Counted from the first letter of the stretch, positions 24,792 through 63,660 are shown. The stretch: 64,000 bases of DNA from a virus (IMGVR_UViG_3300017977_000066:64001-128000), one strand, 5' to 3'. Translations and numbers: made by a program. Notes: a model not told the origin generated them from the letters alone.

Positions 24792-26600
24792 ATGAGACGA
24801 GGAATAACAATAGACGACAATGTTAATAACACGGGTCTTGATGACCTGCTAAACAATGAAGAAGTAGGTAACACAAGTACCGGTACTGCTGATGATGGCC
24901 AACTGCAAGTAGTAGGTCTATCTGGTATGGATTCGTTAATGCTTGAAGATAGTGACCAAGAGTCACTTGGTAAATATGCAGTAAAATCTGCAGAGATACT
25001 AAAAGAGGGATACTTAGATATCCGTGTTATGAAGATGGATAAAGAGAAGTTCGGTCTTGGATTTAGCTTCGTACTTTATAGTACTAAAGACAATGCTGGT
25101 AAAGTATACTACTTCTTAGCTCTTTTAGAGAAAACAGGTAGACAACCATTAGAAGTAAAACAAATCGTAAATGAGTTAAATGTTAAGAACAACACATCTA
25201 TCTTAGTTACAAGTGATGCTTTTGATGATACTGTTTATGCTATTGCTGAGACTATGCTTAAGAAAGCATATAAAGATATTACATCTCTTAGAAACCTAGA
25301 GGGTGTTGTTATCCCTAGTAGTTCAGATGTAGAAGCTACTGCTGAAGTTATGAGTAGATATGTTCATAACCGTATGGTAGTTGAAAGTGAGATCACTTCT
25401 GGTAAATCAGCAGACCTTAACTTTAAAGCATTGAGGGCTATTGGTAGAAATAGCAATACTAACTTAGACATTGCTTTCAATACTGGTTTAACTATTAATA
25501 CTGCAGGTAGATCTATTAGATCGGATTTCAATATCGAATCTAATATCGCATCTAATAGTTATGTTAGAAGTATGCATGATATCTCTGGTAAGAAGCGTAT
25601 CGCTACCGTATCTGGATACCTAGAGTATTTAGTATCTGATAAAGTTAATGAGTATACGATGCAGTCCACTAAAGTTGCAACACCTATCCTTATCTTAAAC
25701 GAGTTCATGGGTAAAGCTAGTTCACTTAATTATGTATTAACTTCTATTGTTAACTCTACTATCTTTAGTAGCAGACCTATCCTTAGAAACTTAATCGTAG
25801 AGAAAGATGCTGGCCCATTAAATGTACTATTTAACTATGGTGGTGATGCTTCTAAGCCTGGTGACAAACTAAGCTTCAAAGATGAAAAAGCTAAGCCTGA
25901 GATAGTTAATGATATCATCAGACAACATGTTACATCTACACCTATCGTTGCTATCGAGGTAGAGTTATTCGGTTCTGACTATTCACACATGGCTCCATTC
26001 GTAGCATTAGCAAGTGATGAAACTCGTATGGCTGCTACTGAAGACATCTTAAAAGGTGCTAGTGAGTTGGTTGGTTCTAAAATGGAAACATCAAGTGTTC
26101 TGGGTGATGAGTCTTCACTAGTTCCTATCGGAGAGTATCTAGATGCTGATGGTAATGTTAGAGATCTTCGTGAAATCGACTTAGCGTTCATCTGTACTTA
26201 TAGTAACGATCAAGCACTTATCTTTGATTGGATCTACTCTACTTTAACTCCTGCTATGTGTAGAAGTATAACTAGTAAAGATCCGTATCTACTTAAACTA
26301 GAAGTGATTAACAAACTTGCAAGTATGTTAAACTTCAAACCTGTTATCACTGGTAAAGCTGTTCGTATCCCGCTAAGTGGGATGTTCGTAGAAGAGTTAA
26401 CTCGTAAAGCTATGCAAGCAGGATATAACCCAGCTCCAACGAATGATGCTATCGGTTACAATGATTTCAATAATCTACAAATCGTAAGCCAAGCATACAA
26501 TGGTTCTACATTAGCTAATACTGGATTTGGTATGGGTAACTCATATTCAAATGGTAGAAGCCAAATGCCTGGTGTATATACTGGTTATCAACGCCGCTAA
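24792..26600 (+). CDS. chmA: chimallin, phage nuclear shell protein (phiKZ gp54 / 201phi2-1 gp105-like)
   Basis: 602 aa; ALLEKTG, GRSIRSDFNI, VPIGEYLDADGNVRDLREIDL, ITGKAVRI..F..L...AG, G/N/Y-rich C-terminal tail; early promoter; near gp52-like and DNA polymerase genes. Confidence 0.8.
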   Translation: MRRGITIDDNVNNTGLDDLLNNEEVGNTSTGTADDGQLQVVGLSGMDSLMLEDSDQESLGKYAVKSAEILKEGYLDIRVMKMDKEKFGLGFSFVLYSTKDNAGKVYYFLALLEKTGRQPLEVKQIVNELNVKNNTSILVTSDAFDDTVYAIAETMLKKAYKDITSLRNLEGVVIPSSSDVEATAEVMSRYVHNRMVVESEITSGKSADLNFKALRAIGRNSNTNLDIAFNTGLTINTAGRSIRSDFNIESNIASNSYVRSMHDISGKKRIATVSGYLEYLVSDKVNEYTMQSTKVATPILILNEFMGKASSLNYVLTSIVNSTIFSSRPILRNLIVEKDAGPLNVLFNYGGDASKPGDKLSFKDEKAKPEIVNDIIRQHVTSTPIVAIEVELFGSDYSHMAPFVALASDETRMAATEDILKGASELVGSKMETSSVLGDESSLVPIGEYLDADGNVRDLREIDLAFICTYSNDQALIFDWIYSTLTPAMCRSITSKDPYLLKLEVINKLASMLNFKPVITGKAVRIPLSGMFVEELTRKAMQAGYNPAPTNDAIGYNDFNNLQIVSQAYNGSTLANTGFGMGNSYSNGRSQMPGVYTGYQRR

Positions 26601-26608
26601 CAAATACT

Positions 26609-26650
26609 TAAGAGGGATGGTCATAACGACCGCTCTCTTATTTTTTTATT
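26609..26650 (+). terminator. intrinsic terminator after chmA
   Basis: taagagggatggtc / gaccgctctctta imperfect stem plus T7 tract. Confidence 0.65.
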
Positions 26651-26700
26651 GTTTTACTACTGTTAAGGATATTTTGAAAAATACATATAAAGGAATGGTT

Positions 26701-60755: not shown

Positions 60756-60791
60756 AAAACCCTAGCTATAATAAAAAAACAGGAGTAATAA

Positions 60792-62018
60792 ATGTTAGAA
60801 CAAAACATACCGTATCTAAATGAAGTAAAACATAACTTCATAGAGCAAGATCCGAACTACCAGTTAGATGCTAAATATTTTAGTGCATCAGCTATGAACT
60901 CATTCGCAGATCACTCTAGTTCATCAAGATCAGTGATGTTCTCATCTCACATGTCACAACCAGTAGTTATAGACGACCCAGATATCAACATGGTGCAGTC
61001 AGGATTAGAATATGACTTCGCTAAGTATACCATATCTAAGTATGTAGATAACCCATCTGAAGTAGTAGCCATAATAAAGAGATATAGATCTCTAGATAGG
61101 AACGATGAGTCTAGTACCGCAGAAACTATTGTTATGTTCAAAGATTTAACTACGGGTGTACTAGATGCTTTAGAGATACCTACCTTTAATAAATTACACC
61201 CATATTTTGGATATAAGTTCAATACTGAGAAGCTATCGGAGTTATCTATAGGTGATACTATAACTAGTGATGATAAACTAGGAGCCTCACCTTCTAACAT
61301 AGGTGATCATGACTATGGTTATGGTAAAGACTTAAATGTAATACAGATGACCATACCAGCTGTTGATGAAGATGGTTTTGTTATAAGTGAATCTTGTGCT
61401 AAGAAATTCCAGTTCAGTGTTTTTGATACTAGAACCATAGAAGTAGGTGAGTCTAGTTTTCTACTAAACCTGTATGGAGAAGATGGTGAGTATAAACCAT
61501 TACCAGATATAGGTGAAAAGATAAGTGATACTGGAGCTATAGCCGTTATAAGGAACTATGATGAAGATTTCTCACCTGTAGCTATGGGTATAGAAGATGT
61601 TAAGAAGTTTAACCCTATATTCGATAAGGCTGTATATGGTAGACATCCTAGATCTACTATAGTTGACATCAAGATCCATAAGAACAACAAGAGGAAGAAA
61701 ACACTTCCTACTGGTACTGAGAAGTATTGTGAGGAGTATAGCGATAAGCTAGTTAACTTCTACCAGCAGATCATCAACACCTATGATAGTATTAATGATG
61801 CTAACAAAAGATCGTTAGGTAGAGAGGTGGAAGTTGGTAATACTTTATACACACTATTATCAGAAGCATATGGTGTAACTGAAGCTAGTAAACCAAATTC
61901 AAAACTACGTTATAAATATAGAAAAGATAATGTAGATCTGTATAGAATAGAAGTCACTACTGAGACTCATTTCGATAGGCTGTTTATAGGAGCAAAGATT
62001 ACAGATAATATAGGAGGC
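60792..62018 (+). CDS. non-virion RNAP beta subunit, exon 1 (phiKZ gp71-73-like)
   Basis: SSSRSVMFSSHMSQ, G..LNV..M....EDGFVISES (RpoB), ends at GAKITDNIGG; 409 codons. Confidence 0.85.
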
Positions 62019-62646
62019 GATTTATTAACGGATTAGTTAGGTGTTGATTTGTACATATATAGATGTTCTATACGGGATAAACTTTGAATACTAAAACCTA
62101 TTTTAGGGGTAGGATGTTTAAAGCTGTATACAGCATGCATGTAACTTGTATAAATAAATGTTAACTAACTGTTAAAATATTACCAGCTTAGGTAGAGATG
62201 CTTAAGTTAAAATCTTGCTAATGACGGGAAGCGACTAAAGATCCATATACTAACCGAACCTGGGAAACCAGATTAATAGAGTTCGGGGCATAGTTAACTA
62301 CTATGGTATAGTAAAAAGTATGGATATGGTATTAAGTTACCAGTGCAGACGATCACTCTACTTGACTAACACTTAAAGTATGACATAACATGTACAATGC
62401 GTAATCCGCAGCGAAGACCCTAACTCTATTAAAGACACGGGTTGTGCTCAACGACTAAGGGATTTTCCACCCTGTAGGACCCAAGTGGGTAGACATAAGT
62501 CTTTAAATCGAAATGCTAGAGATCCTAACCTGTAATATAAGTAGTGTTATGCTTAGGAAGGATCTAGATATAGTCTGGACATGTATGGAAAGCATACAGA
62601 AGTTCATAAGAGAACTGGTTCATCTAACGAATGGGCTGAACACACG
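62019..62646 (+). ncRNA. group I self-splicing intron (IA2-like), no intact homing endonuclease
   Basis: P aatgacgggaa (about 62220), Q aatccgcagc (about 62403), R ctcaacgacta (about 62447), S gatatagtct (about 62568), GAGA-capped P2, P7.1/7.2-type hairpins, terminal G62646; removal restores GAKITDNIGG|KGTIV in frame. Confidence 0.88.
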
Positions 62647-63660
62647 AAAGGAACGATCGTAGACATCTTACCTGATGATAAGATGCCTAGAGATAAATTT
62701 GGGAATGTAGCAGACATCATCATAGATCCAAAATCTACCATATCTAGACTTAATATAGGCAGACTTTATGAGATGTATACTAAGGCTTCTATAGTTAAGG
62801 TATCTGCTATGATAAAACACGAGGTGTCTAAGATATCTAAGAAGTTAGACTTGGACGAGTTAAAAGATGAAGACATCTATAGCATATATGATATCATCAT
62901 AGACTACCTATCTATATACGACAATGACTATACTAAAGTCATCATAGCTGTTAAACAAGAGAAAGATCTTGATGCTATGCTATCCGTCATAAGTGAAGCT
63001 GTAACAGATAAGCTAAGAGTATATCTTCCATTAGATAACACTAAGAGGAAGTATGAGATAGTTAATGATATAGAATTAAGTAAATATGCCCCTATAAATG
63101 ATAAAGTGTATATGGATGCTAGCATGACTACTGAGTCTGTAGACCCTATGCTCATAACTCCATTATACATGTTCATGCTTAGTAAGATAGCTGACTCTAC
63201 ATTAGCATCTGCTTCTAGTAAAGTAAATCACTTTGGTTTACCTGTAGTTGCTAATAAGACTGATAAGTTTGATTTCCCACATAAGAACTCTCCTGGTAGA
63301 TTCTTAGGAGAGACTGAGCTTAGAATATTATCTGCTTATACAGATCCTAAATTTGTAGCTGAGTATAGGGATAGGAATGCTAATGTTAATACCCATAGGG
63401 AAGTCTATAAGAATCTACTCTCTGCTGACAAGCCTACTAATGTAGAAACTTTAGTAGATCGTAGTAAACATCCTTATGGTAGAGATCGCGCATTAGAGAT
63501 ACTTATGTCTCTATGGAACAGCGCTGGTTTTACATTAGGGCATGTGGAAGATAAACATCCTGATTATGAGTATGTAGGACAAACTGATGATGGGATCATA
63601 GGTGCGGGGGAATTGGTTTCTATGTCTGATATAGATATAGAGAATGAAGATGAAAATTAA
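62647..63660 (+). CDS. non-virion RNAP beta subunit, exon 2
   Basis: KGTIVDILPDDKMP..G..ADIIIDP.STISRLNIGRLYE, RFLGETE; spliced product 746 aa. Confidence 0.85.
   Translation, partial: KGTIVDILPDDKMPRDKFGNVADIIIDPKSTISRLNIGRLYEMYTKASIVKVSAMIKHEVSKISKKLDLDELKDEDIYSIYDIIIDYLSIYDNDYTKVIIAVKQEKDLDAMLSVISEAVTDKLRVYLPLDNTKRKYEIVNDIELSKYAPINDKVYMDASMTTESVDPMLITPLYMFMLSKIADSTLASASSKVNHFGLPVVANKTDKFDFPHKNSPGRFLGETELRILSAYTDPKFVAEYRDRNANVNTHREVYKNLLSADKPTNVETLVDRSKHPYGRDRALEILMSLWNSAGFTLGHVEDKHPDYEYVGQTDDGIIGAGELVSMSDIDIENEDEN

Follow-up and report, generated by a model that had tools for sequence, protein, structure and literature searches.

The Chimalliviridae, the family of nucleus-forming phages to which phiKZ is related, are defined by chimallin together with 72 core genes, have genomes of 167-322 kb and include one Bacillus phage (PMC10299810). 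Sun et al. (2025) have recently catalogued phages with chimallin and PhuZ from IMG/VR and further data sets, and obtained 1,103 non-redundant chimallin genomes with GC contents of 27-59%; these fall into three chimallin clades and 21 clusters, of which 11 lack a reference phage (PMC12625630). IMG/VR is also the source of the DNA analyzed here. The window is a stretch of 64,000 nucleotides, bases 64001-128000 of the 154,896-bp virus record IMGVR_UViG_3300017977_000066 (positions in the whole record are given below as G000 coordinates), and its region 24792-63660 encodes homologues of the proteins that build and serve the phage nucleus. We consider it very probable that the window covers the middle of the genome of an uncultured, nucleus-forming relative of phiKZ of the Chimalliviridae type, belonging to a clade known only from metagenomes, with genomes of about 186 kb and 28-33% GC. 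The presence of the gene set is read from the DNA, whereas its working would follow that of the studied relatives.

The open reading frames (ORFs) of the region and the genes of phiKZ were both scanned against PHROGs and the family assignments were then compared, which revealed a one-to-one correspondence between the ORFs of the region and their phiKZ counterparts. Three of these genes concern the shell of the nucleus and traffic across it (E, expectation value):

24792-26600, plus strand: ChmA (chimallin), nuclear-shell protein, 602 amino acids; phrog_4795, E 8e-24 (phiKZ gp54 family)
51770-52414, plus strand: ChmC, Whirly-fold predicted RNA-binding protein (phiKZ gp67-like), 214 amino acids; phrog_3284, E 3.5e-5, with profile and fold
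56729-58276, plus strand: PicA/Imp1, nuclear protein-import factor (phiKZ gp69-like), 515 amino acids; phrog_3141, E 2.7e-49

For ChmA, the sequence evidence from the single protein is thin, and it was the fold search that settled its identity. The protein matched one phage record by tblastn, at 21.7% identity, and none of the phiKZ proteins below 1e-3 by phmmer; a Pfam scan returned no match for ChmA, ChmC or PicA. Among metagenome proteins, a word-indexed search brought up 13 with 41-75% identity and a further three with 23%. The AlphaFold2 model built on an alignment of the metagenome relatives has a predicted local distance difference test score (pLDDT) of 73, with a confident core at residues 53-550, flanked on either side by a tail (1-52 and 551-602) that is disordered. 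When this model was compared with the PDB by Foldseek, chimallins were the only proteins matched: nine chains (structures 7sqt, 7squ, 7sqv, 7sqq, 8fne and 8igg) with E from 1e-20 to 2e-25 and template modelling (TM) scores of 0.65-0.77, the next match having an E of 0.016. In addition, a ChmA profile of the clade matches, at 1.4e-22, the 201phi2-1 protein gp105, for which a lattice structure has been solved. Just 22 columns of ChmA are unchanged throughout the clade and in its distant relatives.

Compared with the solved chimallins (Goslar 7SQT-7SQV; 201phi2-1 7SQQ-7SQS and 8IGG; PhiPA3 PhuN 8FNE), the whole core fold aligns over 540-613 columns, and ChmA of this record is slightly shorter. 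Flexible N- and C-terminal segments like those of the solved proteins are predicted here, as is docking of the C-terminal one on the core. When the complex was predicted, the tail segment 561-582 docked on the core with a score of 0.69, against 0.02 for the best of three controls. Of 80 solved complexes, 58 attained that mark, as did 2 of 110 mismatched pairs; at least 45% of the contacts are shared between runs, and the partner has a pLDDT of at least 42. This prediction does not separate docking in cis from docking in trans, and the pass may reflect likeness to known structures, because chimallin lattices are already in the PDB.

ChmC has been described as a Whirly-fold protein with a disordered C-terminal tail and corresponds to gp67 of phiKZ (PMC11077065). 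The match of the 51770-52414 product to phrog_3284 is weak by itself; an exhaustive search yielded 34 relatives, and a profile of 32 sequences aligned with phiKZ gp67 by hhalign at 92% probability and E 5e-7, while 22 of the 32 relatives match the gp67 PHROG. The AlphaFold2 model (pLDDT 88.5) consists of two beta-sheet-plus-helix repeats followed by a low-confidence tail at 180-214, which is disordered, rich in N and S and acidic at its end. Its best Foldseek matches in the PDB are plant Whirly proteins, Pur-alpha and trypanosome MRP1/2, and the best viral ones in BFVD are chimallivirus proteins of about 230 amino acids. We assign the product to ChmC, and by its fold and its relatives it would bind RNA. 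The case of PicA is simpler. The protein is the counterpart of phiKZ gp69, and picA is a core gene kept in all chimallin-encoding phages (PMC11087766); a BLASTP alignment with gp69 covers the full length (residues 2-481) at 24% identity and E 5e-28.

The machinery for transcription in the nucleus is encoded in the same region, beginning between chmC and picA, as subunits of the non-virion RNA polymerase (nvRNAP):

54932-56620, plus strand: fifth subunit of nvRNAP (phiKZ gp68-like); phrog_3209, E 5e-52, the same family as phiKZ gp68
60792-62036, plus strand: nvRNAP beta-like subunit, exon 1 (phiKZ gp71-like); phrog_3295 positions 7-403, E 2e-84
62163-62599, plus strand: group I intron, no ORF, in the nvRNAP beta gene; Rfam RF00028
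62600-63660, plus strand, splice site approximate: nvRNAP beta-like subunit, exon 2 (phiKZ gp73-like; ORF 62581-63660); phrog_3295 positions 403-694, E 2e-64; PF00562, Rpb2 domain 6
63667-64000, plus strand: start of the nvRNAP beta-prime C-terminal subunit (phiKZ gp74-like), which runs off the window; full ORF at G000 127667-129709, phmmer 6.5e-39 to phiKZ gp74

Homologues of gp55 and gp123, the remaining nvRNAP subunits, and of gp75 were found by phmmer against phiKZ elsewhere in the record, so that all five nvRNAP subunits (gp55, gp68, gp71-73, gp74 and gp123) are present together with a separate virion RNA polymerase, represented by homologues of gp178, gp180, gp149 and gp80. The gp55-like and gp180-like proteins carry DFDGD catalytic motifs. 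The record also encodes terminase (TerL), portal, major capsid and sheath proteins, found in the same comparison, and a PhuZ tubulin outside the window at G000 62155-63198 (phmmer 3.4e-8 to phiKZ gp39; in the PDB, 5.5e-6 to 3zbp, PHIKZ039, and 5e-4 to PhuZ of 201phi2-1). This record thus shares with phiKZ a second RNA polymerase set, that of the virion, as well as PhuZ and the families of the head, tail and terminase proteins, at protein identities of about 20-35%.

The gp71-like and gp73-like parts meet at about position 403 of phrog_3295, which is the site of the gp71/gp73 split in phiKZ, and a group I intron lies at this same place of the nvRNAP beta gene in both phages. The element at 62163-62599 matches RF00028 with 55.1 bits against a gathering score of 50, over the full model (1-253 of 253), and is predicted to splice as a group I intron. 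Unlike phiKZ, which has gp72 between gp71 and gp73, the intron has no homing-endonuclease ORF; it is either of old origin, with later loss of the endonuclease, or the product of repeated homing into a conserved site.

The initial annotation, made from the sequence alone, had placed a phage-nucleus gene set within 24792-63660, and this claim is borne out by the ChmA, ChmC, gp68, PicA, gp70 and gp71/73 homologues, which share the PHROG families of phiKZ; the structural comparison it had proposed for ChmA and the comparisons for ChmC and PicA came out in its favor, as described above. One of its assignments has to be corrected. The gp74 homologue had been placed inside this interval; the ORF at 62581-63660 is the gp73-like exon and not gp74, and the gp74-like gene starts 7 bases past the end of the interval.

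Whether the lineage is a new one was asked from the conserved markers. The initial annotation had proposed an uncharacterized lineage, and there is good support for it: megablast of 20 kb found no match in 50,697 phage records, the DNA polymerase matches 294 phage records at identities of only 25-31%, and the terminase is 26-38% identical to those of all named phages. In the trees of DNA polymerase, ChmA and terminase, metagenome contigs alone form the clade that holds this record (support 99-100), and this clade branches among the named chimallin phages. Close nesting inside a described genus, which would remove the novelty, was not seen in any of the three trees. The line for a genus is drawn at about 70% nucleotide similarity across the genome in the practice of the ICTV. 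That the phage belongs to a genus already described is next to impossible in our judgement, since there was no megablast match in the phage records searched, the best identities were 31% for the DNA polymerase, 38% for the terminase and 22% for ChmA, and the clade stands apart in the three trees; no evidence for such membership was found.

The emphasis that the initial annotation laid on novelty was nevertheless too high. The terminase of phiKZ is itself only 36% identical to those of RAY, Machina or AgentSmith; because the terminase distances of the clade equal those between known genera, it is one more deep branch and not an outlier of the family. A GC content of 33% is in the range of the family, large syntenic blocks are kept, and the record was already part of IMG/VR, one of the sources of the 2025 catalogue (PMC12625630). 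What stands is that the toolkit is real and that no described genus contains the phage.

The nearest named relative, at a long distance, is Bacillus phage vB_BspM_AgentSmith (MW749006, 200 kb), which is sister to the clade in the DNA polymerase tree (Shimodaira-Hasegawa-like approximate likelihood-ratio test, SH-aLRT, 99) and in the terminase tree (98), on long branches, and which gave the highest score with the ChmA profile in a comparison of four named phages (182 bits, E 4e-55; the others 76-105 bits). The two share 30% identity in the DNA polymerase and 38% in the terminase, and PicA is barely recognizable between them (E 3e-6). AgentSmith has a compact genome and a low GC content (0.37 in the loci examined), like this clade; however, its chmA and polymerase genes are not neighbors as they are here. 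During the comparison of terminases we observed that the open frames of Pseudomonas phage EL (1,089 amino acids) and Vibrio phage Aphrodite1 (1,080 amino acids) give a match split in two pieces, a pattern that would be produced by an intein or another insertion within TerL.

Four clade relatives were found in IMG/VR, with ChmA identities of 57, 52, 46 and 37%, and all four have PicA, at 29-48% identity. In each of them chmA precedes the polymerase gene, whereas the polymerase gene comes first in every named phage examined and in more distant contigs. One member, IMGVR_UViG_3300026382_000006, has 186,213 bp, direct terminal repeats and a GC content of about 28-29%, and is probably a complete genome; its CheckV completeness of 69% is then probably an underestimate that comes from larger reference genomes, and CheckV estimates look biased low for this compact clade. 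The PicA match in this genome holds one TAA. No terminal overlap was found in the 154,896-bp record itself, and by the same reasoning it is likely to be about four fifths complete. The genome would be of about 186 kb, against 280 kb for phiKZ, and the high-quality genomes of the published catalogue are also larger than the clade member, at 200-324 kb (PMC12625630).

If the system works as in the studied relatives, the virion RNA polymerase, packed in the head, would transcribe the early genes, including chmA; ChmA, its protomers joined by the flexible tails at both termini, would then enclose the phage DNA in a protein lattice. Inside the shell, transcription would be carried out by the five-subunit nvRNAP (gp55-, gp68-, gp71/73-, gp74- and gp123-like), while PicA at the shell would import selected phage proteins, ChmC, as a Whirly-fold RNA binder, would help mRNA to leave the shell, and the PhuZ tubulin would position the compartment. 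The expected outcome is the exclusion of host defenses that target DNA.

Several observations weigh against this picture. In the structural alignment, ChmA is just 14-15% identical to the solved chimallins, its phmmer match in the PDB, to PhuN of PhiPA3, has an E of 0.06, and the Pfam model PF25677.1 (Chimallin_Phikzvirus) found no match in a search of the genome. The precomputed PF25677.3 does match, and we treat the failure of the older version as a matter of model version and sensitivity; still, with this low identity, this E and this unmatched model, lattice formation is a reading of the fold and the tails. The record is linear, and CheckV puts its completeness at 58%, that of a fragment, which limits the view of the core set. 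Finally, the trees were quick maximum-likelihood reconstructions with IQ-TREE, with SH-aLRT support only and midpoint rooting, and contained chimallin phages without an outgroup.

These reservations leave room for a phage that keeps genes of the chimallin family without a closed nucleus, the shell protein having been repurposed, as might occur in a reduced genome. ChmA and PicA do evolve fast, to judge from their identities within the clade given above, and a genome of about 186 kb is smaller than those of most studied members. However, all the parts of the toolkit that were tested are present together and conserved across the clade, the predicted ChmA retains the core fold and both tails, and known members of the family go down to 167 kb (PMC10299810). 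We regard such a loss of the nucleus as very improbable and keep to a nucleus-forming phage.

The remaining genes of the region follow the configuration of phiKZ in their families, and in large part in their order:

26527-27651, plus strand: phiKZ gp28-like vertex-binding virion protein; PF25614 PhiKZ_VTX, E 8e-16; phrog_3227
28185-30365, plus strand: family B DNA polymerase (phiKZ gp50-like); phrog_2927, E 1e-167
34173-49200, strand unspecified: block of virion and head genes, collinear with phiKZ gp87, gp88, gp90, gp98 and gp99; PHROG matches and phmmer against phiKZ
50621-51709, plus strand: SbcD-like nuclease (phiKZ gp65-like); phrog_100, E 6e-42; phmmer 2e-50
53431-54288, plus strand: phiKZ gp66-like protein; phrog_3229, E 4.6e-27, the same family as phiKZ gp66
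58301-59683, plus strand: phiKZ gp70-like protein; phrog_3520, E 1e-31, the same family as phiKZ gp70

The counterpart of gp70 in PhiPA3, gp64, is shell-associated (PMC11077065). The rearranged order proposed in the initial annotation is real at three points: chmA precedes the DNA polymerase gene, whereas in phiKZ it comes after it; the gp55 gene, which follows chmA in phiKZ, is about 76 kb away from it; and the gp66 and gp67 genes are swapped, with two small ORFs between them. Elsewhere the claim fails, as phmmer shows collinearity with phiKZ in two blocks, gp62-gp75 and gp87-gp99, and the order from gp68 to gp75 is identical. The description of the region as very AT-rich needs a similar adjustment, for the window, which is densely coding, has a GC content of 0.32-0.35 throughout, a value that is ordinary within the range published for the family (PMC12625630).

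Between the gp66-like and gp68-like genes, at 54305-54919, there is a protein of 204 amino acids that carries a CxxC...CxxC cluster at its N terminus and ends in a strongly basic tail, and whose sole family match is a weak one to phrog_11861 (E 3.8e-5), of unassigned function. It occupies the slot of phiKZ gp67 and was considered as a candidate for ChmC; we rejected it, as it is Cys-rich with a basic tail and has no match to the gp67 family, which the 51770-52414 product does have.

Upstream of chmA, a promoter-like block could be read directly:

24734-24760, plus strand: promoter-like block TATATTAC-TTACATGAGCCTAGAGC upstream of chmA

Two nearly identical copies of a 26-nucleotide block, (T/C)ATATTACTTACATGAGCCTAGAG, precede chmA (copy at 24734-24760) and the ORF at 27739 (copy at 27691-27716). 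The bare 8-mer TATATTAC is not enriched in the window, where it was found 18 times against 14.8 expected. The block upstream of chmA may be an early promoter, a role suggested by the biology of phiKZ. An apparent joint 27714->24792, seen in the read layout of all four runs, was considered as a duplication and dismissed as an artefact, because the promoter-like block is repeated upstream of both genes.

We then asked where phages of this clade live and which bacteria they infect. Contigs covering the 5.6-kb stretch from chmA to the polymerase gene were found in runs of two studies, labelled as biofilm and hydrothermal vent metagenomes; examples are one of 3,750 bases with 319 differences and one of 1,532 bases with 103. 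As these contigs are about 91-93% identical, close relatives of the phage live in vent and biofilm habitats. None of the papers searched links chimallin phages to vents, and a single one contains both chimallin and Campylobacterota, with one mention of the phylum.

A host among the Campylobacterota of sulfidic or vent habitats, with a nucleus in a phylum without an earlier report of it, is a serious possibility, although we would stop somewhat short of calling it probable. It is suggested above all by ThyX, encoded outside the window at G000 52101-53132 (Pfam Thy1), whose best named matches, at 45-54% identity in the catalytic part, are only to Helicobacter and Helicobacteraceae. A first scan of species genomes with the single protein as query gave no match; when 185,579 species genomes were scanned with peptide patterns, each of the 80 top-ranking loci belonged to Campylobacterota (Sulfurospirillum, Sulfuricurvum, Sulfurimonas, Helicobacter, Campylobacter, Arcobacter and Nitratifractor), a result that leans toward this phylum, as the patterns were derived from an alignment of such ThyX proteins. 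The close relatives in vent and biofilm metagenomes, the GC content of 28-33% and an SLT-type transglycosylase, as in phages of Gram-negative hosts, are in line with it, and we count the silence of the literature on chimallin at vents on the same side. Yet this is one gene at about 50% identity, a sign of an old transfer and not of a present host, and the nearest named phage infects Bacillus. A dimeric all-alpha dUTPase (G000 7348-8019, minus strand; PF08761, E 6e-26), with metagenome proteins 85-90% identical to it, has no match in Campylobacterota, its best named ones being marine Alteromonadales at 32-36%. No tRNA genes are available for a host comparison: neither tRNA nor tmRNA genes were found in the 154,896 bases, in contrast to the seven tRNA genes annotated in the stretch of phiKZ that was examined. 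As for ThyX itself, of the Campylobacterota type at 45-55% identity, its alignment shows an insertion of about 110 residues between the N-terminal and catalytic parts, and this long form occurs in three metagenome relatives.

The sister position to AgentSmith in the DNA polymerase and terminase trees, the ChmA profile that scores this Bacillus phage best and the low GC would fit a low-GC Gram-positive host (Bacillota) instead, as for that relative. We find this unlikely. With branches this long (terminases at 38% identity), a change of host along the way is easily imagined; ThyX resembles the proteins of Campylobacterota, and the SLT transglycosylase lacks a recognized domain for binding the Gram-positive wall. 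The evidence on the host is mixed, ThyX pointing toward Campylobacterota and the dUTPase not. With this in mind, we put forward, more tentatively still than the host assignment, that this clade, with a compact genome of about 186 kb, may infect Campylobacterota in sulfidic or hydrothermal settings and be the first lineage of nucleus-forming phages to do so; the predicted hosts of the catalogue of Sun et al. (2025) do not include Campylobacterota (PMC12625630).

The phage-nucleus system itself is already well described, and our result is a confirmation of it and not a new mechanism. What it adds is a deep uncultured branch of the family of nucleus-forming phages, in which all hallmark parts (the shell, the importer, the RNA binder, the two RNA polymerases and the tubulin) have been kept within less than 200 kb of genome, at identities of about 15-35%. 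It also helps to define which protein features are truly conserved, such as the 22 invariant columns of ChmA. If the link to Campylobacterota or to vents is true, the host and habitat range of this anti-defense strategy would be wider, the phage nucleus would work in a further phylum and in chemosynthetic ecosystems, and culturable hosts, such as Sulfurimonas or Sulfurospirillum, would be indicated for isolating such phages.

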